Made by a program: the position numbers and the translations under genes
Sequence record: PV223882
Source: Escherichia phage T7
DNA: 38,432 nucleotides
Direction: 5' to 3' (one strand)
Notes under the pieces: model-generated
What the model was told of the DNA's origin: nothing
What the model saw: only the letters and a program-made list of their open reading frames with translations
Database searches by the model: none
Shown here: piece by piece, positions 10,870-38,099 of the stretch
Layout: every line of letters begins with the position of its first letter
How positions within the stretch are numbered: position 1 is the stretch's first letter

Positions 10870-12984
10870 ATGATCGTTTCTGACATCGAAGCTAACGCCC
10901 TCTTAGAGAGCGTCACTAAGTTCCACTGCGGGGTTATCTACGACTACTCCACCGCTGAGTACGTAAGCTACCGTCCGAGTGACTTCGGTGCGTATCTGGA
11001 TGCGCTGGAAGCCGAGGTTGCACGAGGCGGTCTTATTGTGTTCCACAACGGTCACAAGTATGACGTTCCTGCATTGACCAAACTGGCAAAGTTGCAATTG
11101 AACCGAGAGTTCCACCTTCCTCGTGAGAACTGTATTGACACCCTTGTGTTGTCACGTTTGATTCATTCCAACCTCAAGGACACCGATATGGGTCTTCTGC
11201 GTTCCGGCAAGTTGCCCGGAAAACGCTTTGGGTCTCACGCTTTGGAGGCGTGGGGTTATCGCTTAGGCGAGATGAAGGGTGAATACAAAGACGACTTTAA
11301 GCGTATGCTTGAAGAGCAGGGTGAAGAATACGTTGACGGAATGGAGTGGTGGAACTTCAACGAAGAGATGATGGACTATAACGTTCAGGACGTTGTGGTA
11401 ACTAAAGCTCTCCTTGAGAAGCTACTCTCTGACAAACATTACTTCCCTCCTGAGATTAACTTTACGGACGTAGGATACACTACGTTCTGGTCAGAATCCC
11501 TTGAGGCCGTTGACATTGAACATCGTGCTGCATGGCTGCTCGCTAAACAAGAGCGCAACGGGTTCCCGTTTGACACAAAAGCAATCGAAGAGTTGTACGT
11601 AGAGTTAGCTGCTCGCCGCTCTGAGTTGCTCCGTAAATTGACCGAAACGTTCGGCTCGTGGTATCAGCCTAAAGGTGGCACTGAGATGTTCTGCCATCCG
11701 CGAACAGGTAAGCCACTACCTAAATACCCTCGCATTAAGACACCTAAAGTTGGTGGTATCTTTAAGAAGCCTAAGAACAAGGCACAGCGAGAAGGCCGTG
11801 AGCCTTGCGAACTTGATACCCGCGAGTACGTTGCTGGTGCTCCTTACACCCCAGTTGAACATGTTGTGTTTAACCCTTCGTCTCGTGACCACATTCAGAA
11901 GAAACTCCAAGAGGCTGGGTGGGTCCCGACCAAGTACACCGATAAGGGTGCTCCTGTGGTGGACGATGAGGTACTCGAAGGAGTACGTGTAGATGACCCT
12001 GAGAAGCAAGCCGCTATCGACCTCATTAAAGAGTACTTGATGATTCAGAAGCGAATCGGACAGTCTGCTGAGGGAGACAAAGCATGGCTTCGTTATGTTG
12101 CTGAGGATGGTAAGATTCATGGTTCTGTTAACCCTAATGGAGCAGTTACGGGTCGTGCGACCCATGCGTTCCCAAACCTTGCGCAAATTCCGGGTGTACG
12201 TTCTCCTTATGGAGAGCAGTGTCGCGCTGCTTTTGGCGCTGAGCACCATTTGGATGGGATAACTGGTAAGCCTTGGGTTCAGGCTGGCATCGACGCATCC
12301 GGTCTTGAGCTACGCTGCTTGGCTCACTTCATGGCTCGCTTTGATAACGGCGAGTACGCTCACGAGATTCTTAACGGCGACATCCACACTAAGAACCAGA
12401 TAGCTGCTGAACTACCTACCCGAGATAACGCTAAGACGTTCATCTATGGGTTCCTCTATGGTGCTGGTGATGAGAAGATTGGACAGATTGTTGGTGCTGG
12501 TAAAGAGCGCGGTAAGGAACTCAAGAAGAAATTCCTTGAGAACACCCCCGCGATTGCAGCACTCCGCGAGTCTATCCAACAGACACTTGTCGAGTCCTCT
12601 CAATGGGTAGCTGGTGAGCAACAAGTCAAGTGGAAACGCCGCTGGATTAAAGGTCTGGATGGTCGTAAGGTACACGTTCGTAGTCCTCACGCTGCCTTGA
12701 ATACCCTACTGCAATCTGCTGGTGCTCTCATCTGCAAACTGTGGATTATCAAGACCGAAGAGATGCTCGTAGAGAAAGGCTTGAAGCATGGCTGGGATGG
12801 GGACTTTGCGTACATGGCATGGGTACATGATGAAATCCAAGTAGGCTGCCGTACCGAAGAGATTGCTCAGGTGGTCATTGAGACCGCACAAGAAGCGATG
12901 CGCTGGGTTGGAGACCACTGGAACTTCCGGTGTCTTCTGGATACCGAAGGTAAGATGGGTCCTAATTGGGCGATTTGCCACTGA
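10870..12984 (+). CDS. 5: DNA polymerase gp5
   Basis: 704-aa [29 protein letters not shown]... with family A polymerase motifs. Confidence 0.97.
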
Positions 12985-13029
12985 TACAGGAGGCTACTCA
13001 AAAGGCATAAAACTATAGGAGAAATTATT

Positions 13030-13329
13030 ATGGCTATGACAAAGAAATTTAAAGTGTCCTTCGACGTTACCGCAAAGATGTCGTCTGACGTTCAGGCAAT
13101 CTTAGAGAAAGATATGCTGCATCTATGTAAGCAGGTCGGCTCAGGTGCGATTGTCCCCAATGGTAAACAGAAGGAAATGATTGTCCAGTTCCTGACACAC
13201 GGTATGGAAGGATTGATGACATTCGTAGTACGTACATCATTTCGTGAGGCCATTAAGGACATGCACGAAGAGTATGCAGATAAGGACTCTTTCAAACAAT
13301 CTCCTGCAACAGTACGGGAGGTGTTCTGA
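13030..13329 (+). CDS. 5.5: Gp5.5 (H-NS binding protein)
   Basis: 99-aa ORF MAMTKKFKVSFDVTAKMSSDVQAILEKDMLHLCKQV... Confidence 0.9.
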   Translation: MAMTKKFKVSFDVTAKMSSDVQAILEKDMLHLCKQVGSGAIVPNGKQKEMIVQFLTHGMEGLMTFVVRTSFREAIKDMHEEYADKDSFKQSPATVREVF

Positions 13330-13538
13330 TGTCTGACTACCTGAAAGTGCTGCAAGCAATCAAAAGTTGCCCTAAGACTTTCCAGTCCAACTATGTACGG
13401 AACAATGCGAGCCTCGTAGCGGAGGCCGCTTCCCGTGGTCACATCTCGTGCCTGACTACTAGTGGACGTAACGGTGGCGCTTGGGAAATCACTGCTTCCG
13501 GTACTCGCTTTCTGAAACGAATGGGAGGATGTGTCTAA
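13329..13538 (+). CDS. 5.7: Gp5.7
   Basis: 69-aa ORF overlapping 5.5 stop (TGATG). Confidence 0.88.
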   Translation: MSDYLKVLQAIKSCPKTFQSNYVRNNASLVAEAASRGHISCLTTSGRNGGAWEITASGTRFLKRMGGCV

Positions 13539-13696
13539 TGTCTCGTGACCTTGTGACTATTCCACGCGATGTGTGGAACGATATACAGGGCTACATCGAC
13601 TCTCTGGAACGTGAGAACGATAGCCTTAAGAATCAACTAATGGAAGCTGACGAATACGTAGCGGAACTAGAGGAGAAACTTAATGGCACTTCTTGA
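13538..13696 (+). CDS. 5.9: Gp5.9 RecBCD inhibitor
   Basis: 52-aa ORF MSRDLVTIPRDVWNDIQGYIDSLERENDSLKNQLMEADEYVAELEEKLNGTS. Confidence 0.85.
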   Translation: MSRDLVTIPRDVWNDIQGYIDSLERENDSLKNQLMEADEYVAELEEKLNGTS

Positions 13697-14585
13697 CCTT
13701 AAACAATTCTATGAGTTACGTGAAGGCTGCGACGACAAGGGTATCCTTGTGATGGACGGCGACTGGCTGGTCTTCCAAGCTATGAGTGCTGCTGAGTTTG
13801 ATGCCTCTTGGGAGGAAGAGATTTGGCACCGATGCTGTGACCACGCTAAGGCCCGTCAGATTCTTGAGGATTCCATTAAGTCCTACGAGACCCGTAAGAA
13901 GGCTTGGGCAGGTGCTCCAATTGTCCTTGCGTTCACCGATAGTGTTAACTGGCGTAAAGAACTGGTTGACCCGAACTATAAGGCTAACCGTAAGGCCGTG
14001 AAGAAACCTGTAGGGTACTTTGAGTTCCTTGATGCTCTCTTTGAGCGCGAAGAGTTCTATTGCATCCGTGAGCCTATGCTTGAGGGTGATGACGTTATGG
14101 GAGTTATTGCTTCCAATCCGTCTGCCTTCGGTGCTCGTAAGGCTGTAATCATCTCTTGCGATAAGGACTTTAAGACCATCCCTAACTGTGACTTCCTGTG
14201 GTGTACCACTGGTAACATCCTGACTCAGACCGAAGAGTCCGCTGACTGGTGGCACCTCTTCCAGACCATCAAGGGTGACATCACTGATGGTTACTCAGGG
14301 ATTGCTGGATGGGGTGATACCGCCGAGGACTTCTTGAATAACCCGTTCATAACCGAGCCTAAAACGTCTGTGCTTAAGTCCGGTAAGAACAAAGGCCAAG
14401 AGGTTACTAAATGGGTTAAACGCGACCCTGAGCCTCATGAGACGCTTTGGGACTGCATTAAGTCCATTGGCGCGAAGGCTGGTATGACCGAAGAGGATAT
14501 TATCAAGCAGGGCCAAATGGCTCGAATCCTACGGTTCAACGAGTACAACTTTATTGACAAGGAGATTTACCTGTGGAGACCGTAG
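13683..14585 (+). CDS. 6: 5'-3' exonuclease gp6
   Basis: 300-aa ORF MALLDLKQFYELREGCDDKGILVMDGDWLVFQAMSA... Confidence 0.96.
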   Translation: MALLDLKQFYELREGCDDKGILVMDGDWLVFQAMSAAEFDASWEEEIWHRCCDHAKARQILEDSIKSYETRKKAWAGAPIVLAFTDSVNWRKELVDPNYKANRKAVKKPVGYFEFLDALFEREEFYCIREPMLEGDDVMGVIASNPSAFGARKAVIISCDKDFKTIPNCDFLWCTTGNILTQTEESADWWHLFQTIKGDITDGYSGIAGWGDTAEDFLNNPFITEPKTSVLKSGKNKGQEVTKWVKRDPEPHETLWDCIKSIGAKAGMTEEDIIKQGQMARILRFNEYNFIDKEIYLWRP

Positions 14586-14686
14586 CGTATATTGGTCTGG
14601 GTCTTTGTGTTCTCGGAGTGTGCCTCATTTCGTGGGGCCTTTGGGACTTAGCCAGAATAATCAAGTCGTTACACGACACTAAGTGA
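14573..14686 (+). CDS. 6.3: Gp6.3 small membrane-like protein (GTG start)
   Basis: 37-codon ORF overlapping the gene 6 end; hydrophobic AYIGLGLCVLGVCLISWGLW. Confidence 0.7.
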   Translation: METVAYIGLGLCVLGVCLISWGLWDLARIIKSLHDTK

Positions 14687-14706
14687 TAAACTCAAGGTCC
14701 CTAAAT

Positions 14707-14729
14707 TAATACGACTCACTATAGGGAGA
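14707..14729 (+). promoter_or_regulatory. T7 class III promoter phi6.5
   Basis: taatacgactcactatagggaga exact consensus. Confidence 0.9.
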
Positions 14730-14783
14730 TAGGGGCCTTTACGATTATTACTTTAAGATTTAACTCTAAGAGGAATCTTTATT

Positions 14784-15038
14784 ATGTTAACACCTATTAA
14801 CCAATTACTTAAGAACCCTAACGATATTCCAGATGTACCTCGTGCAACCGCTGAGTATCTACAGGTTCGATTCAACTATGCGTACCTCGAAGCGTCTGGT
14901 CATATAGGACTTATGCGTGCTAATGGTTGTAGTGAGGCCCACATCTTGGGTTTCATTCAGGGCCTACAGTATGCCTCTAACGTCATTGACGAGATTGAGT
15001 TACGCAAGGAACAACTAAGAGATGATGGGGAGGATTGA
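14784..15038 (+). CDS. 6.5: Gp6.5
   Basis: 84-aa [30 protein letters not shown]... Confidence 0.9.
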
Positions 15039-15042
15039 CACT

Positions 15043-15309
15043 ATGTGTTTCTCACCGAAAATTAAAACTCCGAAGATGGATACCAATCAGATTCGAGCCG
15101 TTGAGCCAGCGCCTCTGACCCAAGAAGTGTCAAGCGTGGAGTTCGGTGGGTCTTCTGATGAGACGGATACCGAGGGCACCGAAGTGTCTGGACGCAAAGG
15201 CCTCAAGGTCGAACGTGATGATTCCGTAGCGAAGTCTAAAGCCAGCGGCAATGGCTCCGCTCGTATGAAATCTTCCATCCGTAAGTCCGCATTTGGAGGT
15301 AAGAAGTGA
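15043..15309 (+). CDS. 6.7: Gp6.7 virion protein
   Basis: 88-aa ORF MCFSPKIKTPKMDTNQIRAV... Confidence 0.88.
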   Translation: MCFSPKIKTPKMDTNQIRAVEPAPLTQEVSSVEFGGSSDETDTEGTEVSGRKGLKVERDDSVAKSKASGNGSARMKSSIRKSAFGGKK

Positions 15310-15710
15310 TGTCTGAGTTCACATGTGTGGAGGCTAAGAGTCGCTTCCGTGCAATCCGGTGGACTGTGGAACACCTTGGGTTGCCTAAAGGATTCGAAGG
15401 ACACTTTGTGGGCTACAGCCTCTACGTAGACGAAGTGATGGACATGTCTGGTTGCCGTGAAGAGTACATTCTGGACTCTACCGGAAAACATGTAGCGTAC
15501 TTCGCGTGGTGCGTAAGCTGTGACATTCACCACAAAGGAGACATTCTGGATGTAACGTCCGTTGTCATTAATCCTGAGGCAGACTCTAAGGGCTTACAGC
15601 GATTCCTAGCGAAACGCTTTAAGTACCTTGCGGAACTCCACGATTGCGATTGGGTGTCTCGTTGTAAGCATGAAGGCGAGACAATGCGTGTATACTTTAA
15701 GGAGGTATAA
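15309..15710 (+). CDS. 7: Gp7 (host-range / virion assembly)
   Basis: 133-aa ORF MSEFTCVEAKSRFRAIRWTVEHLG... Confidence 0.9.
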   Translation: MSEFTCVEAKSRFRAIRWTVEHLGLPKGFEGHFVGYSLYVDEVMDMSGCREEYILDSTGKHVAYFAWCVSCDIHHKGDILDVTSVVINPEADSKGLQRFLAKRFKYLAELHDCDWVSRCKHEGETMRVYFKEV

Positions 15711-15713
15711 GTT

Positions 15714-16013
15714 ATGGGTAAGAAAGTTAAGAAGGCCGTGAAGAAAGTCACCAAGTCCGTTAAGAAAGTCGTTAAGGAAGGGGCTCGTCCGGTTAAACAG
15801 GTTGCTGGCGGTCTAGCTGGTCTGGCTGGTGGTACTGGTGAAGCACAGATGGTGGAAGCACCACAAGCTGCCGCACAGATTGTTGACGTACCTGAGAAAG
15901 AGGTTTCCACTGAGGACGAAGCACAGACAGAAAGCGGACGCAAGAAAGCTCGTGCTGGCGGTAAGAAATCCTTGAGTGTAGCCCGTAGCTCCGGTGGCGG
16001 TATCAACATTTAA
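15714..16013 (+). CDS. 7.3: Gp7.3 tail-associated protein
   Basis: 99-aa lysine-rich ORF MGKKVKKAVKKVTKSVKKVVKEGARP... Confidence 0.92.
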   Translation: MGKKVKKAVKKVTKSVKKVVKEGARPVKQVAGGLAGLAGGTGEAQMVEAPQAAAQIVDVPEKEVSTEDEAQTESGRKKARAGGKKSLSVARSSGGGINI

Positions 16014-16026
16014 TCAGGAGGTTATC

Positions 16027-16290
16027 GTGGAAGACTGCATTGAATGGACCGGAGGTGTCAACTCTAAGGGTTATGGTCGTAAGTGGGTTAATGGTAAACT
16101 TGTGACTCCACATAGGCACATCTATGAGGAGACATATGGTCCAGTTCCAACAGGAATTGTGGTGATGCATATCTGCGATAACCCTAGGTGCTATAACATA
16201 AAGCACCTTACGCTTGGAACTCCAAAGGATAATTCCGAGGACATGGTTACCAAAGGTAGACAGGCTAAAGGAGAGGAACTAAGCAAGTAA
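16027..16290 (+). pseudogene. 7.7: Gene 7.7 (HNH endonuclease-like), truncated by the LysK cassette insertion
   Basis: GTG-start ORF with HNH motif HICDNPRCYNIKHL ends at ...GEELSK; the stop codon is supplied by the first TAA of the inserted promoter. Confidence 0.8.
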
Positions 16291-16310
16291 TACGACTCAC
16301 TATAGGCCTC
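16288..16310 (+). promoter_or_regulatory. Inserted T7 promoter (pET-style, lac operator absent) driving the LysK cassette
   Basis: taatacgactcactatagg followed by cctctagaaataattttgtttaactttaagaaggagatatacatATG; leader and RBS identical to the native gene 10 leader. Confidence 0.9.
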
Positions 16311-16350
16311 TAGAAATAATTTTGTTTAACTTTAAGAAGGAGATATACAT

Positions 16351-17874
16351 ATGGGCAGCAGCCATCATCATCATCATCACAGCAGCGGCGCTAAGACTCA
16401 AGCAGAAATAAATAAACGTTTAGACGCTTATGCAAAAGGTACAGTAGACAGTCCTTATAGAATTAAAAAAGCTACAAGCTATGACCCATCGTTTGGTGTA
16501 ATGGAAGCAGGAGCAATTGACGCAGATGGTTACTATCATGCACAGTGCCAAGACTTAATTACTGATTATGTATTATGGTTAACAGATAATAAAGTTAGAA
16601 CTTGGGGTAATGCTAAAGACCAAATCAAACAAAGTTATGGTACTGGATTTAAAATACATGAAAATAAACCTTCTACAGTACCTAAAAAAGGATGGATTGC
16701 TGTATTTACATCCGGTAGTTATCAGCAATGGGGTCACATAGGTATTGTATATGATGGAGGTAATACTTCTACATTTACTATTTTAGAGCAAAACTGGAAC
16801 GGTTACGCTAATAAAAAACCTACAAAACGTGTAGATAATTATTACGGATTAACTCATTTTATTGAGATACCTGTAAAAGCAGGAACTACTGTTAAAAAAG
16901 AAACAGCTAAGAAAAGTGCAAGTAAAACACCTGCACCTAAAAAGAAAGCAACACTAAAAGTTTCTAAGAACCATATTAACTATACAATGGATAAACGTGG
17001 TAAGAAACCTGAAGGAATGGTAATACACAACGATGCAGGTCGTTCTTCAGGGCAACAATACGAGAATTCATTAGCTAACGCAGGTTATGCTAGATATGCT
17101 AATGGTATTGCTCATTACTATGGCTCTGAAGGTTATGTATGGGAAGCAATAGATGCTAAGAATCAAATTGCTTGGCACACAGGAGATGGAACAGGAGCAA
17201 ACTCAGGTAACTTTAGATTTGCAGGTATTGAAGTCTGTCAATCAATGAGTGCTAGTGATGCTCAATTCCTTAAAAACGAACAAGCAGTATTCCAATTTAC
17301 TGCAGAGAAATTTAAAGAATGGGGTCTTACTCCTAATCGTAAAACTGTAAGATTGCATATGGAATTTGTTCCAACAGCTTGTCCTCATCGTTCTATGGTT
17401 CTTCATACAGGATTTAATCCAGTAACACAAGGAAGACCATCTCAAGCAATAATGAATAAACTAAAAGATTATTTCATTAAACAAATTAAAAACTACATGG
17501 ATAAAGGAACTTCAAGTTCTACAGTAGTTAAAGACGGTAAAACAAGTAGCGCAAGTACACCGGCAACTAGACCAGTAACAGGCTCTTGGAAAAAGAACCA
17601 GTACGGAACTTGGTACAAACCGGAAAATGCAACATTTGTTAATGGTAACCAACCTATAGTAACTAGAATAGGTTCTCCATTCTTAAATGCTCCAGTAGGA
17701 GGTAACTTACCGGCAGGAGCTACAATTGTATATGACGAAGTTTGTATCCAAGCAGGTCACATTTGGATAGGTTACAATGCTTACAATGGTGACAGAGTAT
17801 ATTGCCCTGTTAGAACTTGTCAAGGAGTTCCACCTAATCATATACCTGGGGTTGCCTGGGGAGTATTCAAATAG
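16351..17874 (+). CDS. lysK: Heterologous N-terminally His6-tagged staphylococcal phage endolysin (LysK of phage K; CHAP, amidase_2 and SH3b domains)
   Basis: [13 protein letters not shown] tag then [33 protein letters not shown]... recognised as LysK; CHAP Cys in ...YHAQCQDL; AT-rich native codons. Confidence 0.88.
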
Positions 17875-19615: not shown

Positions 19616-20539
19616 ATGGCTGAATCTAATGCAGACGTATATGCATCTTTTGGCGTGAACTCCGCTGTGATGTCTGGTGGTTCCGTTGAGGAACATGAGC
19701 AGAACATGCTGGCTCTTGATGTTGCTGCCCGTGATGGCGATGATGCAATCGAGTTAGCGTCAGACGAAGTGGAAACAGAACGTGACCTGTATGACAACTC
19801 TGACCCGTTCGGTCAAGAGGATGACGAAGGCCGCATTCAGGTTCGTATCGGTGATGGCTCTGAGCCGACCGATGTGGACACTGGAGAAGAAGGCGTTGAG
19901 GGCACCGAAGGTTCCGAAGAGTTTACCCCACTGGGCGAGACTCCAGAAGAACTGGTAGCTGCCTCTGAGCAACTTGGTGAGCACGAAGAGGGCTTCCAAG
20001 AGATGATTAACATTGCTGCTGAGCGTGGCATGAGTGTCGAGACCATTGAGGCTATCCAGCGTGAGTACGAGGAGAACGAAGAGTTGTCCGCCGAGTCCTA
20101 CGCTAAGCTGGCTGAAATTGGCTACACGAAGGCTTTCATTGACTCGTATATCCGTGGTCAAGAAGCTCTGGTGGAGCAGTACGTAAACAGTGTCATTGAG
20201 TACGCTGGTGGTCGTGAACGTTTTGATGCACTGTATAACCACCTTGAGACGCACAACCCTGAGGCTGCACAGTCGCTGGATAATGCGTTGACCAATCGTG
20301 ACTTAGCGACCGTTAAGGCTATCATCAACTTGGCTGGTGAGTCTCGCGCTAAGGCGTTCGGTCGTAAGCCAACTCGTAGTGTGACTAATCGTGCTATTCC
20401 GGCTAAACCTCAGGCTACCAAGCGTGAAGGCTTTGCGGACAGTAGCGAGATGATTAAAGCTATGAGTGACCCTCGGTATCGCACAGATGCCAACTATCGT
20501 CGTCAAGTCGAACAGAAAGTAATCGATTCGAACTTCTGA
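19616..20539 (+). CDS. 9: Capsid assembly (scaffolding) protein gp9
   Basis: 307-aa acidic ORF MAESNADVYASFGVNSAVMSGG... Confidence 0.96.
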   Translation: MAESNADVYASFGVNSAVMSGGSVEEHEQNMLALDVAARDGDDAIELASDEVETERDLYDNSDPFGQEDDEGRIQVRIGDGSEPTDVDTGEEGVEGTEGSEEFTPLGETPEELVAASEQLGEHEEGFQEMINIAAERGMSVETIEAIQREYEENEELSAESYAKLAEIGYTKAFIDSYIRGQEALVEQYVNSVIEYAGGRERFDALYNHLETHNPEAAQSLDNALTNRDLATVKAIINLAGESRAKAFGRKPTRSVTNRAIPAKPQATKREGFADSSEMIKAMSDPRYRTDANYRRQVEQKVIDSNF

Positions 20540-20632: not shown

Positions 20633-21670
20633 ATGGCTAGCATGACTGGTGGACAGCAAATGGGTACTAACCAAGGTAAAGGTGTAGTTGCTGCTGGAGA
20701 TAAACTGGCGTTGTTCTTGAAGGTATTTGGCGGTGAAGTCCTGACTGCGTTCGCTCGTACCTCCGTGACCACTTCTCGCCACATGGTACGTTCCATCTCC
20801 AGCGGTAAATCCGCTCAGTTCCCTGTTCTGGGTCGCACTCAGGCAGCGTATCTGGCTCCGGGCGAGAACCTCGACGATAAACGTAAGGACATCAAACACA
20901 CCGAGAAGGTAATCACCATTGACGGTCTCCTGACGGCTGACGTTCTGATTTATGATATTGAGGACGCGATGAACCACTACGACGTTCGCTCTGAGTATAC
21001 CTCTCAGTTGGGTGAATCTCTGGCGATGGCTGCGGATGGTGCGGTTCTGGCTGAGATTGCCGGTCTGTGTAACGTGGAAAGCAAATATAATGAGAACATC
21101 GAGGGCTTAGGTACTGCTACCGTAATTGAGACCACTCAGAACAAGGCCGCACTTACCGACCAAGTTGCGCTGGGTAAGGAGATTATTGCGGCTCTGACTA
21201 AGGCTCGTGCGGCTCTGACCAAGAACTATGTTCCGGCTGCTGACCGTGTGTTCTACTGTGACCCAGATAGCTACTCTGCGATTCTGGCAGCACTGATGCC
21301 GAACGCAGCAAACTACGCTGCTCTGATTGACCCTGAGAAGGGTTCTATCCGCAACGTTATGGGCTTTGAGGTTGTAGAAGTTCCGCACCTCACCGCTGGT
21401 GGTGCTGGTACCGCTCGTGAGGGCACTACTGGTCAGAAGCACGTCTTCCCTGCCAATAAAGGTGAGGGTAATGTCAAGGTTGCTAAGGACAACGTTATCG
21501 GCCTGTTCATGCACCGCTCTGCGGTAGGTACTGTTAAGCTGCGTGACTTGGCTCTGGAGCGCGCTCGCCGTGCTAACTTCCAAGCGGACCAGATTATCGC
21601 TAAGTACGCAATGGGCCACGGTGGTCTTCGCCCAGAAGCTGCTGGTGCAGTGGTTTTCAAAGTGGAGTAA
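20633..21670 (+). CDS. 10A: Major capsid protein gp10A
   Basis: 345-aa ORF MASMTGGQQMG... (T7-tag N-terminus) ending ...AVVFKVE*. Confidence 0.98.
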   Translation: MASMTGGQQMGTNQGKGVVAAGDKLALFLKVFGGEVLTAFARTSVTTSRHMVRSISSGKSAQFPVLGRTQAAYLAPGENLDDKRKDIKHTEKVITIDGLLTADVLIYDIEDAMNHYDVRSEYTSQLGESLAMAADGAVLAEIAGLCNVESKYNENIEGLGTATVIETTQNKAALTDQVALGKEIIAALTKARAALTKNYVPAADRVFYCDPDSYSAILAALMPNAANYAALIDPEKGSIRNVMGFEVVEVPHLTAGGAGTAREGTTGQKHVFPANKGEGNVKVAKDNVIGLFMHRSAVGTVKLRDLALERARRANFQADQIIAKYAMGHGGLRPEAAGAVVFKVE

Positions 21671-21693
21671 TAATACGACTCACTATAGGCCTC
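21671..21693 (+). promoter_or_regulatory. Inserted T7 promoter (pET-style, no lac operator) driving the second lysin cassette
   Basis: Identical to the 16288 element: taatacgactcactataggcctctagaaataattttgtttaactttaagaaggagatatacat. Confidence 0.9.
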
Positions 21694-21733
21694 TAGAAAT
21701 AATTTTGTTTAACTTTAAGAAGGAGATATACAT

Positions 21734-22498
21734 ATGACAACAGTAAATGAAGCATTAAATAATGTAAGAGCTCAGGTTGGGTCCGGTGTGTCTGTTGGCA
21801 ACGGCGAATGCTACGCTTTGGCTAGTTGGTACGAGCGCATGATTAGTCCGGATGCAACTGTCGGACTTGGCGCTGGTGTGGGCTGGGTCAGCGGTGCAAT
21901 CGGCGATACAATCTCTGCCAAAAACATCGGCTCATCATACAACTGGCAAGCTAACGGCTGGACAGTTTCCACATCTGGTCCATTTAAAGCAGGTCAGATT
22001 GTGACGCTTGGGGCAACACCAGGAAACCCTTACGGACATGTGGTAATCGTCGAAGCAGTGGACGGCGATAGATTGACTATTTTGGAGCAAAACTACGGCG
22101 GGAAACGTTATCCCGTCCGTAATTATTACAGCGCTGCAAGCTATCGTCAACAGGTCGTGCATTACATCACACCGCCTGGCACGGTCGCACAGTCAGCACC
22201 CAACCTTGCAGGCTCTCGTTCCTATCGCGAGACGGGCACTATGACTGTCACGGTCGATGCTCTCAATGTTCGCAGGGCGCCAAATACTTCAGGCGAGATT
22301 GTAGCAGTATACAAGCGTGGTGAATCATTTGACTATGATACTGTCATCATCGATGTCAATGGCTATGTCTGGGTGTCTTACATAGGCGGCAGCGGCAAAC
22401 GTAACTACGTTGCGACGGGCGCTACCAAAGACGGTAAGCGTTTCGGCAATGCTTGGGGTACATTTAAAGGCAGCAGCCATCATCATCATCATCACTAG
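21734..22498 (+). CDS. plySs2: Heterologous C-terminally His6-tagged CHAP-SH3b streptococcal lysin (PlySs2-like)
   Basis: MTTVNEALNNVRAQVGSGVSVGNGECYALASWYERMISPD... recognised as PlySs2 from S. suis; ends ...[13 protein letters not shown]. Confidence 0.8.
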   Translation: MTTVNEALNNVRAQVGSGVSVGNGECYALASWYERMISPDATVGLGAGVGWVSGAIGDTISAKNIGSSYNWQANGWTVSTSGPFKAGQIVTLGATPGNPYGHVVIVEAVDGDRLTILEQNYGGKRYPVRNYYSAASYRQQVVHYITPPGTVAQSAPNLAGSRSYRETGTMTVTVDALNVRRAPNTSGEIVAVYKRGESFDYDTVIIDVNGYVWVSYIGGSGKRNYVATGATKDGKRFGNAWGTFKGSSHHHHHH

Positions 22499-22656
22499 CT
22501 GCTGGGGGTGGCCTCAACGGTCGCTGCTAGTCCCGAAGAGGCGAGTGTTACTTCAACAGAAGAAACCTTAACGCCAGCACAGAAGGCCGCACGCACCCGC
22601 GCTGCTAACAAAGCCCGAAAGGAAGCTGAGTTGACTGCTGCCACCGCTGAGCAATA
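22499..22656 (+). other. Untranslated remnant of the gene 10B C-terminal extension region
   Basis: Sequence that in wild-type T7 encodes the frameshift-dependent 10B tail now lies downstream of the cassette stop. Confidence 0.75.
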
Positions 22657-22704
22657 ACTAGCATAACCCCTTGGGGCCTCTAAACGGGTCTTGAGGGGTT
22701 TTTT
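22657..22704 (+). terminator. T7 RNAP terminator Tphi
   Basis: ctagcataaccccttggggcctctaaacgggtcttgaggggttttttg. Confidence 0.95.
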
Positions 22705-22722
22705 GCTGAAAGGAGGAACTAT

Positions 22723-23313
22723 ATGCGCTCATGCGATATGAACGTTGAGACTGCCGCTGAGTTATCAGCTGTGAACGACATTCTGGCGTCTATCGGTGAA
22801 CCTCCGGTATCAACGCTGGAAGGTGACGCTAACGCAGATGTAGCGAACGCTCGGCGTATTCTCAACAAGATTAACCGACAGATTCAATCTCGTGGATGGA
22901 CGTTCAACATTGAGGAAGGCATAACGCTACTACCTGATGTTTACTCCAACCTGATTGTATACAGTGACGACTATTTATCCCTAATGTCTACTTCCGGTCA
23001 ATCCATCTACGTTAACCGAGGTGGCTATGTGTATGACCGAACGAGTCAATCAGACCGCTTTGACTCTGGTATTACTGTGAACATTATTCGTCTCCGCGAC
23101 TACGATGAGATGCCTGAGTGCTTCCGTTACTGGATTGTCACCAAGGCTTCCCGTCAGTTCAACAACCGATTCTTTGGGGCACCGGAAGTAGAGGGTGTAC
23201 TCCAAGAAGAGGAAGATGAGGCTAGACGTCTCTGCATGGAGTATGAGATGGACTACGGTGGGTACAATATGCTGGATGGAGATGCGTTCACTTCTGGTCT
23301 ACTGACTCGCTAA
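22723..23313 (+). CDS. 11: Tail tubular protein A gp11
   Basis: 196-aa ORF in T7 order after Tphi. Confidence 0.95.
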
Positions 23314-23336
23314 CATTAATAAATAAGGAGGCTCTA

Positions 23337-25721
23337 ATGGCACTCATTAGCCAATCAATCAAGAACTTGAAGGGTGGTATCAGCCAACAGCCTGACATCC
23401 TTCGTTATCCAGACCAAGGGTCACGCCAAGTTAACGGTTGGTCTTCGGAGACCGAGGGCCTCCAAAAGCGTCCACCTCTTGTTTTCTTAAATACACTTGG
23501 AGACAACGGTGCGTTAGGTCAAGCTCCGTACATCCACCTGATTAACCGAGATGAGCACGAACAGTATTACGCTGTGTTCACTGGTAGCGGAATCCGAGTG
23601 TTCGACCTTTCTGGTAACGAGAAGCAAGTTAGGTATCCTAACGGTTCCAACTACATCAAGACCGCTAATCCACGTAACGACCTGCGAATGGTTACTGTAG
23701 CAGACTATACGTTCATCGTTAACCGTAACGTTGTTGCACAGAAGAACACAAAGTCTGTCAACTTACCGAATTACAACCCTAATCAAGACGGATTGATTAA
23801 CGTTCGTGGTGGTCAGTATGGTAGGGAACTAATTGTACACATTAACGGTAAAGACGTTGCGAAGTATAAGATACCAGATGGTAGTCAACCTGAACACGTA
23901 AACAATACGGATGCCCAATGGTTAGCTGAAGAGTTAGCCAAGCAGATGCGCACTAACTTGTCTGATTGGACTGTAAATGTAGGGCAAGGGTTCATCCATG
24001 TGACCGCACCTAGTGGTCAACAGATTGACTCCTTCACGACTAAAGATGGCTACGCAGACCAGTTGATTAACCCTGTGACCCACTACGCTCAGTCGTTCTC
24101 TAAGCTGCCACCTAATGCTCCTAACGGCTACATGGTGAAAATCGTAGGGGACGCCTCTAAGTCTGCCGACCAGTATTACGTTCGGTATGACGCTGAGCGG
24201 AAAGTTTGGACTGAGACTTTAGGTTGGAACACTGAGGACCAAGTTCTATGGGAAACCATGCCACACGCTCTTGTGCGAGCCGCTGACGGTAATTTCGACT
24301 TCAAGTGGCTTGAGTGGTCTCCTAAGTCTTGTGGTGACGTTGACACCAACCCTTGGCCTTCTTTTGTTGGTTCAAGTATTAACGATGTGTTCTTCTTCCG
24401 TAACCGCTTAGGATTCCTTAGTGGGGAGAACATCATATTGAGTCGTACAGCCAAATACTTCAACTTCTACCCTGCGTCCATTGCGAACCTTAGTGATGAC
24501 GACCCTATAGACGTAGCTGTGAGTACCAACCGAATAGCAATCCTTAAGTACGCCGTTCCGTTCTCAGAAGAGTTACTCATCTGGTCCGATGAAGCACAAT
24601 TCGTCCTGACTGCCTCGGGTACTCTCACATCTAAGTCGGTTGAGTTGAACCTAACGACCCAGTTTGACGTACAGGACCGAGCGAGACCTTTTGGGATTGG
24701 GCGTAATGTCTACTTTGCTAGTCCGAGGTCCAGCTTCACGTCCATCCACAGGTACTACGCTGTGCAGGATGTCAGTTCCGTTAAGAATGCTGAGGACATT
24801 ACATCACACGTTCCTAACTACATCCCTAATGGTGTGTTCAGTATTTGCGGAAGTGGTACGGAAAACTTCTGTTCGGTACTATCTCACGGGGACCCTAGTA
24901 AAATCTTCATGTACAAATTCCTGTACCTGAACGAAGAGTTAAGGCAACAGTCGTGGTCTCATTGGGACTTTGGGGAAAACGTACAGGTTCTAGCTTGTCA
25001 GAGTATCAGCTCAGATATGTATGTGATTCTTCGCAATGAGTTCAATACGTTCCTAGCTAGAATCTCTTTCACTAAGAACGCCATTGACTTACAGGGAGAA
25101 CCCTATCGTGCCTTTATGGACATGAAGATTCGATACACGATTCCTAGTGGAACATACAACGATGACACATTCACTACCTCTATTCATATTCCAACAATTT
25201 ATGGTGCAAACTTCGGGAGGGGCAAAATCACTGTATTGGAGCCTGATGGTAAGATAACCGTGTTTGAGCAACCTACGGCTGGGTGGAATAGCGACCCTTG
25301 GCTGAGACTCAGCGGTAACTTGGAGGGACGCATGGTGTACATTGGGTTCAACATTAACTTCGTATATGAGTTCTCTAAGTTCCTCATCAAGCAGACTGCC
25401 GACGACGGGTCTACCTCCACGGAAGACATTGGGCGCTTACAGTTACGCCGAGCGTGGGTTAACTACGAGAACTCTGGTACGTTTGACATTTATGTTGAGA
25501 ACCAATCGTCTAACTGGAAGTACACAATGACTGGTGCCCGATTAGGCTCTAACACTCTGAGGGCTGGGAGACTGAACTTAGGGACCGGACAATATCGATT
25601 CCCTGTGGTTGGTAACGCCAAGTTCAACACTGTATACATCTTGTCAGATGAGACTACCCCTCTGAACATCATTGGGTGTGGCTGGGAAGGTAACTACTTA
25701 CGGAGAAGTTCCGGTATTTAA
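23337..25721 (+). CDS. 12: Tail tubular protein B gp12
   Basis: 794-aa ORF MALISQSIKNLKGGISQQPDILRYPDQG... Confidence 0.96.
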   Translation: MALISQSIKNLKGGISQQPDILRYPDQGSRQVNGWSSETEGLQKRPPLVFLNTLGDNGALGQAPYIHLINRDEHEQYYAVFTGSGIRVFDLSGNEKQVRYPNGSNYIKTANPRNDLRMVTVADYTFIVNRNVVAQKNTKSVNLPNYNPNQDGLINVRGGQYGRELIVHINGKDVAKYKIPDGSQPEHVNNTDAQWLAEELAKQMRTNLSDWTVNVGQGFIHVTAPSGQQIDSFTTKDGYADQLINPVTHYAQSFSKLPPNAPNGYMVKIVGDASKSADQYYVRYDAERKVWTETLGWNTEDQVLWETMPHALVRAADGNFDFKWLEWSPKSCGDVDTNPWPSFVGSSINDVFFFRNRLGFLSGENIILSRTAKYFNFYPASIANLSDDDPIDVAVSTNRIAILKYAVPFSEELLIWSDEAQFVLTASGTLTSKSVELNLTTQFDVQDRARPFGIGRNVYFASPRSSFTSIHRYYAVQDVSSVKNAEDITSHVPNYIPNGVFSICGSGTENFCSVLSHGDPSKIFMYKFLYLNEELRQQSWSHWDFGENVQVLACQSISSDMYVILRNEFNTFLARISFTKNAIDLQGEPYRAFMDMKIRYTIPSGTYNDDTFTTSIHIPTIYGANFGRGKITVLEPDGKITVFEQPTAGWNSDPWLRLSGNLEGRMVYIGFNINFVYEFSKFLIKQTADDGSTSTEDIGRLQLRRAWVNYENSGTFDIYVENQSSNWKYTMTGARLGSNTLRAGRLNLGTGQYRFPVVGNAKFNTVYILSDETTPLNIIGCGWEGNYLRRSSGI

Positions 25722-25751
25722 TTAAATATTCTCCCTGTGGTGGCTCGAAAT

Positions 25752-25774
25752 TAATACGACTCACTATAGGGAGA
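25752..25774 (+). promoter_or_regulatory. T7 class III promoter phi13
   Basis: taatacgactcactatagggagaac. Confidence 0.9.
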
Positions 25775-25801
25775 ACAATACGACTACGGGAGGGTTTTCT
25801 T

Positions 25802-26218
25802 ATGATGACTATAAGACCTACTAAAAGTACAGACTTTGAGGTATTCACTCCGGCTCACCATGACATTCTTGAAGCTAAGGCTGCTGGTATTGAGCCGAGT
25901 TTCCCTGATGCTTCCGAGTGTGTCACGTTGAGCCTCTATGGGTTCCCTCTAGCTATCGGTGGTAACTGCGGGGACCAGTGCTGGTTCGTTACGAGCGACC
26001 AAGTGTGGCGACTTAGTGGAAAGGCTAAGCGAAAGTTCCGTAAGTTAATCATGGAGTATCGCGATAAGATGCTTGAGAAGTATGATACTCTTTGGAATTA
26101 CGTATGGGTAGGCAATACGTCCCACATTCGTTTCCTCAAGACTATCGGTGCGGTATTCCATGAAGAGTACACACGAGATGGTCAATTTCAGTTATTTACA
26201 ATCACGAAAGGAGGATAA
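25802..26218 (+). CDS. 13: Internal virion protein A gp13
   Basis: 138-aa ORF MMTIRPTKSTDFEVFTPAHHD... Confidence 0.93.
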   Translation: MMTIRPTKSTDFEVFTPAHHDILEAKAAGIEPSFPDASECVTLSLYGFPLAIGGNCGDQCWFVTSDQVWRLSGKAKRKFRKLIMEYRDKMLEKYDTLWNYVWVGNTSHIRFLKTIGAVFHEEYTRDGQFQLFTITKGG

Positions 26219-26222
26219 CCAT

Positions 26223-26813
26223 ATGTGTTGGGCAGCCGCAATACCTATCGCTATATCTGGCGCTCAGGCTATCAGTGATCAGAACGCTCAGGCCAAAATG
26301 ATTGCCGCTCAGACCGCTGCTGGTCGTCGTCAAGCTATGGAAATCATGAGGCAGACGAACATCCAGAATGCTGACCTATCGTTGTCAGCTCGAAGTAAAC
26401 TTGAGGAAGCGTCCGCCGAGTTGACCTCACAGAACATGCAGAAGGTCCAAGCTATTGGGTCTATCCGAGCGGCTATCGGAGAGAGTATGCTTGAAGGTTC
26501 CTCAATGGACCGCATTAAGCGAGTCACAGAAGGACAGTTCATTCGGGAAGCCAATATGGTAACTGAGAACTATCGCCGTGACTACCAAGCAATCTTCGCA
26601 CAGCAACTTGGTGGTACTCAAAGTGCTGCAAGTCAGATTGACGAAATCTATAAGAGCGAACAGAAACAGAAGAGTAAGCTACAGATGGTTCTGGACCCAC
26701 TGGCTATCATGGGGTCTTCCGCTGCGAGTGCTTACGCATCCGGTGCGTTCGACTCTAAGTCCACAACTAAGGCACCTATTGTTGCCGCTAAAGGAACCAA
26801 GACGGGGAGGTAA
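26223..26813 (+). CDS. 14: Internal core protein gp14
   Basis: 196-aa ORF MCWAAAIPIAISGAQAISDQNAQ...; internal start of the listed ORF. Confidence 0.92.
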   Translation: MCWAAAIPIAISGAQAISDQNAQAKMIAAQTAAGRRQAMEIMRQTNIQNADLSLSARSKLEEASAELTSQNMQKVQAIGSIRAAIGESMLEGSSMDRIKRVTEGQFIREANMVTENYRRDYQAIFAQQLGGTQSAASQIDEIYKSEQKQKSKLQMVLDPLAIMGSSAASAYASGAFDSKSTTKAPIVAAKGTKTGR

Positions 26814-26819
26814 TGAGCT

Positions 26820-29063
26820 ATGAGTAAAATTGAATCTGCCCTTCAAGCGGCACAACCGGGACTCTCTCGGTTACGTGGTGGTGCTGGAGGTATGGGCTAT
26901 CGTGCAGCAACCACTCAGGCCGAACAGCCAAGGTCAAGCCTATTGGACACCATTGGTCGGTTCGCTAAGGCTGGTGCCGATATGTATACCGCTAAGGAAC
27001 AACGAGCACGAGACCTAGCTGATGAACGCTCTAACGAGATTATCCGTAAGCTGACCCCTGAGCAACGTCGAGAAGCTCTCAACAACGGGACCCTTCTGTA
27101 TCAGGATGACCCATACGCTATGGAAGCACTCCGAGTCAAGACTGGTCGTAACGCTGCGTATCTTGTGGACGATGACGTTATGCAGAAGATAAAAGAGGGT
27201 GTCTTCCGTACTCGCGAAGAGATGGAAGAGTATCGCCATAGTCGCCTTCAAGAGGGCGCTAAGGTATACGCTGAGCAGTTCGGCATCGACCCTGAGGACG
27301 TTGATTATCAGCGTGGTTTCAACGGGGACATTACCGAGCGTAACATCTCGCTGTATGGTGCGCATGATAACTTCTTGAGCCAGCAAGCTCAGAAGGGCGC
27401 TATCATGAACAGCCGAGTGGAACTCAACGGTGTCCTTCAAGACCCTGATATGCTGCGTCGTCCAGACTCTGCTGACTTCTTTGAGAAGTATATCGACAAC
27501 GGTCTGGTTACTGGCGCAATCCCATCTGATGCTCAAGCCACACAGCTTATAAGCCAAGCGTTCAGTGACGCTTCTAGCCGTGCTGGTGGTGCTGACTTCC
27601 TGATGCGAGTCGGTGACAAGAAGGTAACACTTAACGGAGCCACTACGACTTACCGAGAGTTGATTGGTGAGGAACAGTGGAACGCTCTCATGGTCACAGC
27701 ACAACGTTCTCAGTTTGAGACTGACGCGAAGCTGAACGAGCAGTATCGCTTGGAGATTAACTCTGCGCTGAACCAAGAGGACCCAAGGACAGCTTGGGAG
27801 ATGCTTCAAGGTATCAAGGCTGAACTAGATAAGGTCCAACCTGATGAGCAGATGACACCACAACGTGAGTGGCTAATCTCCGCACAGGAACAAGTTCAGA
27901 ATCAGATGAACGCATGGACGAAAGCTCAGGCCAAGGCTCTGGACGATTCCATGAAGTCAATGAACAAACTTGACGTAATCGACAAGCAATTCCAGAAGCG
28001 AATCAACGGTGAGTGGGTCTCAACGGATTTTAAGGATATGCCAGTCAACGAGAACACTGGTGAGTTCAAGCATAGCGATATGGTTAACTACGCCAATAAG
28101 AAGCTCGCTGAGATTGACAGTATGGACATTCCAGACGGTGCCAAGGATGCTATGAAGTTGAAGTACCTTCAAGCGGACTCTAAGGACGGAGCATTCCGTA
28201 CAGCCATCGGAACCATGGTCACTGACGCTGGTCAAGAGTGGTCTGCCGCTGTGATTAACGGTAAGTTACCAGAACGAACCCCAGCTATGGATGCTCTGCG
28301 CAGAATCCGCAATGCTGACCCTCAGTTGATTGCTGCGCTATACCCAGACCAAGCTGAGCTATTCCTGACGATGGACATGATGGACAAGCAGGGTATTGAC
28401 CCTCAGGTTATTCTTGATGCCGACCGACTGACTGTTAAGCGGTCCAAAGAGCAACGCTTTGAGGATGATAAAGCATTCGAGTCTGCACTGAATGCATCTA
28501 AGGCTCCTGAGATTGCCCGTATGCCAGCGTCACTGCGCGAATCTGCACGTAAGATTTATGACTCCGTTAAGTATCGCTCGGGGAACGAAAGCATGGCTAT
28601 GGAGCAGATGACCAAGTTCCTTAAGGAATCTACCTACACGTTCACTGGTGATGATGTTGACGGTGATACCGTTGGTGTGATTCCTAAGAATATGATGCAG
28701 GTTAACTCTGACCCGAAATCATGGGAGCAAGGTCGGGATATTCTGGAGGAAGCACGTAAGGGAATCATTGCGAGCAACCCTTGGATAACCAATAAGCAAC
28801 TGACCATGTATTCTCAAGGTGACTCCATTTACCTTATGGACACCACAGGTCAAGTCAGAGTCCGATACGACAAAGAGTTACTCTCGAAGGTCTGGAGTGA
28901 GAACCAGAAGAAACTCGAAGAGAAAGCTCGTGAGAAGGCTCTGGCTGATGTGAACAAGCGAGCACCTATAGTTGCCGCTACGAAGGCCCGTGAAGCTGCT
29001 GCTAAACGAGTCCGAGAGAAACGTAAACAGACTCCTAAGTTCATCTACGGACGTAAGGAGTAA
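26820..29063 (+). CDS. 15: Internal core protein gp15
   Basis: 747-aa ORF MSKIESALQAAQPGLSRLRGG... Confidence 0.96.
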   Translation: MSKIESALQAAQPGLSRLRGGAGGMGYRAATTQAEQPRSSLLDTIGRFAKAGADMYTAKEQRARDLADERSNEIIRKLTPEQRREALNNGTLLYQDDPYAMEALRVKTGRNAAYLVDDDVMQKIKEGVFRTREEMEEYRHSRLQEGAKVYAEQFGIDPEDVDYQRGFNGDITERNISLYGAHDNFLSQQAQKGAIMNSRVELNGVLQDPDMLRRPDSADFFEKYIDNGLVTGAIPSDAQATQLISQAFSDASSRAGGADFLMRVGDKKVTLNGATTTYRELIGEEQWNALMVTAQRSQFETDAKLNEQYRLEINSALNQEDPRTAWEMLQGIKAELDKVQPDEQMTPQREWLISAQEQVQNQMNAWTKAQAKALDDSMKSMNKLDVIDKQFQKRINGEWVSTDFKDMPVNENTGEFKHSDMVNYANKKLAEIDSMDIPDGAKDAMKLKYLQADSKDGAFRTAIGTMVTDAGQEWSAAVINGKLPERTPAMDALRRIRNADPQLIAALYPDQAELFLTMDMMDKQGIDPQVILDADRLTVKRSKEQRFEDDKAFESALNASKAPEIARMPASLRESARKIYDSVKYRSGNESMAMEQMTKFLKESTYTFTGDDVDGDTVGVIPKNMMQVNSDPKSWEQGRDILEEARKGIIASNPWITNKQLTMYSQGDSIYLMDTTGQVRVRYDKELLSKVWSENQKKLEEKAREKALADVNKRAPIVAATKAREAAAKRVREKRKQTPKFIYGRKE

Positions 29064-29089
29064 CTAAAGGCTACATAAGGAGGCCCTAA

Positions 29090-33046: not shown

Positions 33047-33066
33047 TACGACTCACTATAGGGAGA
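33044..33066 (+). promoter_or_regulatory. T7 class III promoter phi17
   Basis: taatacgactcactatagggagagg. Confidence 0.9.
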
Positions 33067-33118
33067 GGCGAAATAATCTTCTCCCTGTAGTCTCTTAGAT
33101 TTACTTTAAGGAGGTCAA

Positions 33119-34780: not shown

Positions 34781-34838
34781 TTGGTAAATCACAAGGAAAG
34801 ACGTGTAGTCCACGGATGGACTCTCAAGGAGGTACAAG

Positions 34839-35042
34839 GTGCTATCATTAGACTTTAACAACGAATTGATTAAGGCTGCTCCAATTGTTGGGACGGGTGT
34901 AGCAGATGTTAGTGCTCGACTGTTCTTTGGGTTAAGCCTTAACGAATGGTTCTACGTTGCTGCTATCGCCTACACAGTGGTTCAGATTGGTGCCAAGGTA
35001 GTCGATAAGATGATTGACTGGAAGAAAGCCAATAAGGAGTGA
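34839..35042 (+). CDS. 17.5: Holin gp17.5
   Basis: 67-aa ORF with a hydrophobic segment (FFGLSLNEWFYVAAIAYTVVQIGA). Confidence 0.9.
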   Translation: MLSLDFNNELIKAAPIVGTGVADVSARLFFGLSLNEWFYVAAIAYTVVQIGAKVVDKMIDWKKANKE

Positions 35043-35047
35043 TATGT

Positions 35048-35317
35048 ATGGAAAAGGATAAGAGCCTTATTACATTCTTAGAGATGTTGGACACTGCGAT
35101 GGCTCAGCGTATGCTTGCGGACCTTTCGGACCATGAGCGTCGCTCTCCGCAACTCTATAATGCTATTAACAAACTGTTAGACCGCCACAAGTTCCAGATT
35201 GGTAAGTTGCAGCCGGATGTTCACATCTTAGGTGGCCTTGCTGGTGCTCTTGAAGAGTACAAAGAGAAAGTCGGTGATAACGGTCTTACGGATGATGATA
35301 TTTACACATTACAGTGA
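35048..35317 (+). CDS. 18: Terminase small subunit (DNA maturation protein A) gp18
   Basis: 89-aa ORF MEKDKSLITFLEMLDTAMAQRMLADL... Confidence 0.93.
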   Translation: MEKDKSLITFLEMLDTAMAQRMLADLSDHERRSPQLYNAINKLLDRHKFQIGKLQPDVHILGGLAGALEEYKEKVGDNGLTDDDIYTLQ

Positions 35318-35355
35318 TATACTCAAGGCCACTACAGATAGTGGTCTTTATGGAT
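35317..35355 (+). promoter_or_regulatory. Probable RNase III site R18.5
   Basis: actcaaggccactacagatagtggtctttatgga hairpin with the shared motif. Confidence 0.55.
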
Positions 35356-35411
35356 GTCATTGTCTATACGAGATGCTCCTACGTGAAATCTGAAAGTTAA
35401 CGGGAGGCATT

Positions 35412-35843: not shown

Positions 35844-35864
35844 GAAATCAAGTAAGGAGGCAAT

Positions 35865-37625: not shown

Positions 37626-37706
37626 TTTATGCATTAGGACTGCATAGGGATGCACTATAGACCACGGATGGTCAGTTCTTTAAGTTACTGAAAAGACACG
37701 ATAAAT

Positions 37707-37729
37707 TAATACGACTCACTATAGGGAGA
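37707..37729 (+). promoter_or_regulatory. T7 promoter phiOR (right-end replication promoter)
   Basis: taatacgactcactatagggagagg. Confidence 0.9.
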
Positions 37730-38033: not shown

Positions 38034-38099
38034 GGTCTTCCTGACCGACTGATGGCTCACCGAGGGATTCAGCGGTATGATTGCATCACACCACTTCAT

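Follow-up and report, generated by a model that had tools for sequence, protein, structure and literature searches.

The described phages closest to the DNA analysed here are the synthetic T7-B series of Zhang et al. (mBio 2025). For these phages, the T7 genome was divided and cloned in BACs, segment by segment, for editing, and the edited segments were joined by ExoCET assembly and then rebooted as phage (PMC12153263). The stated criterion for removal was that the T7 genes were nonessential and had been 'previously systematically identified', with a citation of Yuan et al. 2022 (PMC12153263), and the stated aim was 'releasing 3.9 kb' for payloads (PMC12153263, section 7). T7-B-GJ, with both lysin cassettes, is described in section 10 of the same paper, and PV223882 is given in its Table S1 (PMC12153263). 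The source of the list of nonessential genes, Yuan et al. (NAR 2022; PMC9825161), has gp5.3 as a worked example; its CRISPR-reduced T7 mutants (CiPGr mutants) are evolved populations, not a rebuilt genome.

For gp5.3, the product of the gene at issue here, the nearest described system is I-Ssp6803I (PDB 2OST), the founding PD-(D/E)xK homing endonuclease, the fold of which is closest to the archaeal Hjc resolvase and PvuII-type enzymes and the family of which has been described as mainly cyanobacterial (PMC3384342). I-Ssp6803I is an intron-encoded enzyme, from a cyanobacterial tRNA gene; the gene for gp5.3 stands alone beside a phage polymerase gene. The HNH_3 genes of T7-like phages (3.8, 7.7 and 2.8 of T7, and those of phages PGX1 and AV103) are, like gene 5.3, small, dispensable and scattered among replication genes, but HNH_3 endonucleases have a beta-beta-alpha-metal finger whereas the gp5.3 family would have the restriction-enzyme fold, and there is no sequence similarity between them.

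We compared the window (the whole 38,432-nucleotide stretch of PV223882) base by base with wild-type (WT) T7 (V01146). This alignment, the check that the initial annotation had proposed, maps seven deletions totalling 3,921 bp, among them the expected loss of gene 5.3, together with insertions totalling 2,416 bp and 19 scattered substitutions. The earlier estimate of about 3.8 kb deleted and 2.3 kb inserted was thus slightly low on both counts, and right about the resulting genome size. The deletions are as follows.

Junction 1258..1259, + strand: deletion from the end of gene 0.3 through most of 0.7 (WT 1259-2739, 1,481 bp); the last 6 codons of gene 0.3 are also lost.
Junction 6127..6128, + strand: deletion of gene 1.4 (WT 7609-7764, 156 bp).
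Junction 6561..6562, + strand: deletion of gene 1.7 (WT 8199-8734, 536 bp).
Junction 9095/9096, + strand: deletion in gene 3.8 (WT 11269-11559, 291 bp of 366).
Junction 10814..10815, + strand: deletion of genes 4.3-4.7 (WT 13279-14297, 1,019 bp).
Junction 13000..13001, + strand: deletion of gene 5.3 (WT 16484-16821, 338 bp).
Gene 7.7: deletion of WT 20109-20208 (100 bp), replaced by a 1,587-bp payload.

All seven sizes equal those in Table S2 of Zhang et al., and four of the seven deletions have identical coordinates there, including gp5.3 at 16,484-16,821; the ranges for gp0.4-0.7, gp1.7 and gp3.8 are 1-2 bases off and are equivalent given the short repeats at these junctions (PMC12153263). 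A megablast search with positions 10500-15500 matched three records titled 'Mutant Escherichia phage T7 clone recombinant', with 100% identity and at the same coordinates. One of the related records, PV223881 (recombinant T7-B-G), is 100% identical to positions 1-21671 and 22500-38432 of the window. Another, PV223880, is T7-B, the empty chassis of 36,016 bp; it contains all six of the 60-mers that span the non-payload junctions of the window, and its length plus 1,587 and 829 gives 38,432. From the siblings PV223880, PV223881 and PV223883 and from the paper, we infer that the window is almost certainly the synthetic phage T7-B-GJ and that the 45 bp between genes 5 and 5.5 are what a designed, seamless removal of gene 5.3 left behind. 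In its junctions, its cassettes and all other bases the window is the same as the T7-B series (T7-B, T7-B-G and PV223883, T7-B-J), with no detectable difference, and its composition is exactly that described for T7-B-GJ.

The two insertions are expression cassettes for lysins.

16288..17874, + strand: payload 1, a T7 promoter, a pET-type leader and ribosome-binding site, and His6-LysGH15 (CHAP, Amidase_2 and SH3_5 domains); 1,587 bp, replacing WT 20109-20208.
21672..22499, + strand: payload 2, a T7 promoter, a leader and LyJDSS3-His6 (CHAP and SH3_5 domains); roughly 829 bp, directly after the gene 10A stop codon.

They correspond to the payloads given for T7-B-GJ, PT7-His-LysGH15 at the gp7.7 locus and PT7-LyJDSS3-His after gene 10 (PMC12153263), and in the T7-B-J record the second lysin, at the identical site, bears the annotation LyJDSS3. 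The packaging room freed by the deletions is given over here to 2,416 bp carrying two T7-promoter-driven genes for Gram-positive lysins.

At the gene 5.3 locus itself, the initial annotation had counted 45 bp between gene 5 and gene 5.5 and concluded that gene 5.3 is missing, and this is what the alignment shows.

10870..12984, + strand: gene 5 (T7 DNA polymerase), intact, 704 codons and a stop codon in the list of open reading frames; the same coordinates as gp5.0 in PV223881.
12985..13029, + strand: the 45-bp spacer left between gene 5 and gene 5.5 where gene 5.3 was deleted; WT 16468-16483 fused to WT 16822-16850.
12988..12993, + strand: orphaned gene 5.3 Shine–Dalgarno sequence, AGGAGG; the ATG that followed it now reads AAA, so that the start codon is destroyed.
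13000..13001, + strand: deletion junction, WT 16483 joined to WT 16822.
13001..13018, + strand: retained tail of gene 5.3, its last 18 nt (KGIKL and TAG), overlapping the ribosome-binding site of gene 5.5.
13030..13329, + strand: gene 5.5 (H-NS-binding protein), intact.

Gene 5 differs from WT 14353-16467 by one substitution in the alignment to V01146; its stop codon, TGA, occupies 12982-12984, and the ATG of gene 5.5 is at 13030. The spacer reads tacaggaggctactca up to the junction and aaaggcataaaactataggagaaattatt after it. Its left part (12985-13000) is WT 16468-16483, which holds the Shine–Dalgarno sequence of gene 5.3 and the A of its ATG, and from 13001 on the window follows WT 16822 onward. 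Gene 5.3 has 357 bp, and the bases absent in between, WT 16484-16821, are 338 of them; the frame of gene 5.3 has no start codon left and no open reading frame across the scar. Chance is no issue for this loss, as it shows directly against a reference to which the rest is more than 99.9% identical. The ribosome-binding site of gene 5.5, AGGAG, lies at 13017-13021, 8 nt before the ATG; the 18-nt tail of gene 5.3 was presumably kept owing to its overlap with this site, and translation of the downstream gene would therefore be undisturbed.

The published procedure accounts for this scar. An amp-ccdB cassette was put at gene 5.3 first, and in a second round Red recombineering with an 80-nt single-stranded oligonucleotide of two 40-nt arms swapped the cassette out (PMC12153263). 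The repair oligonucleotide for this locus is listed in Table S7.

12961..13040, + strand: footprint of the 80-nt repair oligonucleotide HA-gp5.3, with arms 12961-13000 and 13001-13040.

The machine-read text of HA-gp5.3 has 78 letters, which align to 12961-13040 without a mismatch, the two missing letters falling in homopolymer runs; its 40-nt left arm, also found in the amp-ccdB primer, is exactly 12961-13000, and the junction at 13000/13001 is the exact midpoint of the oligonucleotide. Two further oligonucleotides agree in the same way, HA-gp4.3 being identical to 10775-10854 of the window and HA-gp7.7 having an exact match in T7-B. The removal of gene 5.3 was deliberate and made for capacity, as the initial annotation had supposed and as Zhang et al. 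describe (PMC12153263), and the deletion was already known: its coordinates, purpose and oligonucleotide are all published.

Natural or spontaneous loss, either in a variant or relative of T7 that never had gene 5.3 or through recombination between short repeats, has next to no probability here. It could draw on the existence of relatives in which the slot is empty, Pantoea phage F5M1C and Escherichia phage AV103, in each of which the polymerase gene and gene 5.5 are 19 bp apart, and on the distribution of gp5.3 homologues, which occur in 107 phage records whereas the flanking polymerase and gene 5.5 DNA is matched by 832-1,132 records. The flanks in the window, however, are 100% T7 and not those of a relative; the direct repeat at the junction is a single A only; the junction is the centre of a published synthetic oligonucleotide; and the same molecule carries six more scars of designed deletions along with two cassettes for the expression of His-tagged proteins.

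Physical descent from the evolved CRISPR-reduced mutants of Yuan et al. (MZ3752xx) is also extremely unlikely. One of them, MZ375251 (T7_100L), and many of its siblings align in one piece over 10500-15500 with 99.9% identity, and such isolates share the design of the gene 5.3 and gene 4.3-4.7 deletions and the 45-bp spacing between genes 5 and 5.5. The scar of MZ375251, however, has C at the junction base where the window and T7-B have A, none of the six junction 60-mers of the window occurs in it, its other deletions differ, and it retains genes 0.7, 1.7, 3.8 and 7.7. Zhang et al. also rebuilt their deletions from wild-type segments (PMC12153263). We reject descent from these isolates on the one-base difference at the junction and the different deletion set; together with the rebuild from wild type, these indicate that the design of Yuan et al. 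was copied and not their DNA.

The initial annotation had named genes 3.8, 5.3 and 7.7 as the HNH homing-endonuclease-like genes of T7 and took their loss as the removal of selfish genes. In the domain search that it proposed, gp3.8 and gp7.7 are HNH proteins and gp5.3 is not. The only Pfam match of gp5.3 is PF11645, PDDEXK_5, with a score of 42.1 bits where 26.1 is the cut-off, and no HNH family matches it at E<=0.01. BLASTP of gp5.3 against gp2.8, gp3.8 and gp7.7 found no similarity at E<=10, NCBIfam gave no matches for any of these four proteins, and in PHROGs gp5.3 falls into an unnamed family that is not an HNH one. A search of the PDB with the single gp5.3 sequence gave a weak match to 2OST (E=0.013). 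With a profile of seven sequences, T7 gp5.3 and homologues from six other phages with 32-75% identity, 2OST (I-Ssp6803I) is the sole PDB match, at E=1.1e-7 over residues 7-104. The homologues match PDDEXK_5 as well (KP32, 46.0 bits; phiIBB-PAA2, 49.9 bits; Kvp1, 43.7 bits). E12, D37 and Q50-V51-K52 are invariant in all seven, and D37 and QVK align with 'YDLV...KVQVK' of 2OST, an alignment that suggests a catalytic role for the conserved residues. With this profile match and the shared D...QVK motif, gp5.3 is a putative nuclease of the PD-(D/E)XK type, I-Ssp6803I-like and not HNH. The label 'homing-endonuclease-like' survives for it in a broad sense; the label HNH does not. The initial annotation had named a non-HNH protein among these three as grounds for refutation, and this applies to gp5.3.

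The HNH set of T7 consists of genes 2.8, 3.8 and 7.7, with gene 5.3 outside it. In the window they stand as follows.

7684..8103, + strand: gene 2.8, full length, with one substitution relative to V01146 (V33A).
9052..9126, + strand: gene 3.8 remnant, codons 1-14 fused in frame to the last 10; 24 amino acids.
16027..16290, + strand: gene 7.7 remnant, 87 native codons and a stop codon, TAA, that the inserted T7 promoter supplies as its first three bases.

Wild-type gp3.8 matches HNH_3 (PF13392) at 56.0 bits, against a cut-off of 24.8, over residues 14-56, and the HNH families of PHROGs at E=3e-61; the 24-residue remnant is without the HNH_3 motif, and the start of gene 4A at 9101 is preserved. 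Wild-type gp7.7 matches HNH_3 at 49.8 bits against the same 24.8 over residues 29-70, and PHROGs agrees. Both genes are shortened, as had been noted, and the motif is lost from 3.8 only: the 87-residue gp7.7 remnant keeps the complete HNH_3 motif (50.6 bits). What gp7.7 loses is its C-terminal 43 residues, to which thirteen HTH families match, all below threshold, and loss of site-specific activity in the remnant is plausible. Gene 2.8, described in the initial annotation as similar and intact, is so: gp2.8 is a paralogue of gp7.7 (49% identity over 128 amino acids, E=1e-35) with a marginal HNH_3 match (26.1 bits against 24.8) and PHROG HNH families at E=1e-30.

These assignments bear on the idea that the engineers set out to clear T7 of a whole class of genes, HNH genes or selfish homing-endonuclease genes, which is very unlikely. 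T7 has four small nuclease-like genes, of which three are affected (3.8, 5.3 and 7.7, not 2.8), a nominal enrichment with a hypergeometric P=0.028 for 12 affected of about 56 genes, and gp3.8 and gp7.7 do belong to HNH_3. With the 36 targeted genes as background, however, P=0.10, and with the 28 that Yuan et al. list as removable P=0.20, which is nothing unusual. Gene 5.3 encodes a PD-(D/E)XK-type protein, the HNH gene 2.8 was kept, and gene 7.7 lost 100 bp only and its HNH motif stays. Nine genes without a sign of a nuclease were removed too (0.4, 0.5, 0.6, 0.7, 1.4, 1.7, 4.3, 4.5 and 4.7; Pfam was run for gp1.7 and gp4.7 only). The criterion stated by the authors is 'nonessential', Table S3 of Zhang et al. 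has gp5.3 and gp7.7 as 'hypothetical protein' only (PMC12153263), and the words 'HNH' and 'homing' have zero occurrences in PMC12153263 and PMC9825161. The genes were therefore chosen as nonessential and not, as the initial annotation had it, as selfish nucleases.

What gp5.3 does in nature is a separate matter. Gene 5.3 immediately follows a family A DNA polymerase gene in T7, KP32, YZ1, ST35, Kvp1, MN05 and phiIBB-PAA2. These phages represent six genera, and MN05 and phiIBB-PAA2 are the more distant carriers. F5M1C and AV103 have nothing in this slot, and the polymerase gene of AV103 is interrupted by an HNH_3 open reading frame; in Escherichia phage PGX1 an unrelated HNH_3 gene sits in the slot of T7 gene 5.3. 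Sporadic presence and replacement by another nuclease fold are typical of free-standing homing endonuclease cassettes, circumstantial signs that point to such a cassette here. On these comparisons the most likely identity of gp5.3 is that of a homing-type endonuclease whose free-standing gene stays attached to the 3' end of the DNA polymerase gene. The literature search for 'gene 5.3' with homing endonuclease found no characterisation of gp5.3, and the PhageMaP preprint (PMC11482910) makes no mention of gene 5.3.

A non-homing function, as a structure-specific (Hjc-like) nuclease or another accessory factor of replication or recombination, is rather unlikely. The relation of the I-Ssp6803I fold to Hjc and PvuII-type enzymes is in keeping with it, as is the constant position of gene 5.3 among replication genes. 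Against it, the gene is sporadic among close relatives, and in other T7-like phages its slot is empty or holds an unrelated HNH_3 gene. The junction resolvase of T7 is endonuclease I, the product of gene 3, so that this activity is already provided. Gene 5.3 is also dispensable, and in serial transfer a gp5.3-disrupted mutant became dominant (Yuan et al.; PMC9825161). For the homing-type reading we would go one step further, tentatively and with less than even confidence: gp5.3 and its relatives may form an uncharacterised phage branch of the I-Ssp6803I family of PD-(D/E)XK homing endonucleases. As a free-standing cassette, this branch would keep to the 3' end of family A polymerase genes, in six phage genera or more, and would compete with HNH_3 cassettes for the slot.

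The window is a laboratory construct, and its odd gene content should not be taken as biology; as a published engineered scar, the gap between genes 5 and 5.5 carries little weight as a discovery. What changes is the family assignment, T7 gene 5.3 being of the PD-(D/E)XK type and not HNH. A view of the chassis as 'endonuclease-free' would be mistaken, as the gp7.7 remnant encodes an intact HNH motif and the HNH gene 2.8 remains. If gp5.3 does belong to a phage branch of the I-Ssp6803I family, the scar in T7-B would be an 'empty allele', and homing would be directly testable in T7.

The 45-bp scar that replaces gene 5.3 in the window (12985-13029) has a close counterpart in T7_100L, the isolate of Yuan et al. 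(MZ375251, 14729-14775), with which it agrees at every position but one. At that position MZ375251 has C, whereas the window retains an A from the gene 5.3 ATG. This single-base difference shows that the two scars were made independently, to one design.

Further features of the engineered sites are as follows (window coordinates).

925-1320: altered gene 0.3 (Ocr) ORF, deletion junction 1258/1259
6124-6150: phi1.5 region with the gene 1.4 deletion junction, 6127/6128
10815: 4.3-4.7 deletion, lacking wild-type positions 13279-14297
16027-16290: gene 7.7 remnant
21652-21700: LyJDSS3 cassette insertion site, immediately 3' of the gene 10A stop codon

Only 100 bp are missing in what was published as the 'gp7.7 deletion', and the 87 native residues that the remnant still encodes span the whole HNH_3 motif (50.6 bits). 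In the window the remnant stops at a TAA supplied by the inserted TAATACGACTCACTATAGG promoter, whereas in T7-B, the empty chassis, its reading frame extends by 12 frameshifted residues.

The left end of the 'gp0.4-0.7' deletion falls within gene 0.3. The resulting ORF encodes 131 amino acids, comprising wild-type Ocr residues 1-111 and 20 out-of-frame residues that derive from the residual 3' portion of gene 0.7 and stand in place of the acidic tail YEEDEE. An imperfect direct repeat, GGAAGTCGAGGA(G/A)GT, lies at this gene 0.3/0.7 junction. None of the sibling records (PV223880, PV223881 and PV223883) carries any gene 0.3 annotation.

T7 promoters are also touched. The gene 1.4 deletion reaches four bases into phi1.5, changing positions -17 to -14 from TAAT to TTTA and leaving the remaining promoter bases as in wild-type T7 (V01146); this class II promoter may be weaker as a result. 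The gp1.4 locus was reported to give the lowest reporter expression (PMC12153263). With the 4.3-4.7 deletion, phi4.3 (wild-type position 13341) and phi4.7 (13915) are lost, so that transcription of gene 5 must come from phi4c or from promoters farther upstream. The overlapping gene 4.2 loses its final 48 nt as well.

The LyJDSS3 cassette interrupts the -1 frameshift extension that encodes the minor capsid protein 10B. The wild-type 10B-specific tail (GFQSGVMLGV...AEQ) runs for 58 residues past the slip site, and in the window this tail reads GFQSGVIIRLTIGL-stop. The 3' coding sequence of 10B, now orphaned, is still present at 22500-22656.

Outside the engineered junctions, comparison of the whole window with V01146 identified 19 single-base substitutions, 14 of them in the right 16 kb (from the gene 10B tail to gene 19) and one producing V33A in gp2.8. 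All 19 also occur in PV223881, and they are presumably differences between laboratory stocks. As printed in Table S7 of PMC12153263, oligonucleotide HA-gp1.4 contains the left homology arm twice and lacks the right arm; the gene 1.4 junction in the window, unlike the printed oligonucleotide, has the expected left and right arms. The printed sequence is probably a typing error.

Among natural relatives, the content of the slot between the polymerase gene and gene 5.5 differs, as does the state of the polymerase gene itself.

L006 (Pantoea phage F5M1C), 1835-1855: slot empty, 19 bp
L007 (Escherichia phage PGX1), 1846-2151: slot occupied by an HNH_3 gene
L008 (Escherichia phage AV103), 1703-2455: polymerase gene split, with an HNH_3 ORF between the parts
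L010 (Kayfunavirus YZ1), 1201-1515: gp5.3 homologue
L011 (Kayfunavirus ST35), 1201-1512: gp5.3 homologue

The homologues in YZ1 and ST35 are clear (44-46% identity) and lie immediately 3' of the polymerase gene. Neither has an obvious ATG start; that of YZ1 is unannotated and that of ST35 only partially annotated. In AV103, the split polymerase gene and the ORF within it look like an intron-like arrangement.
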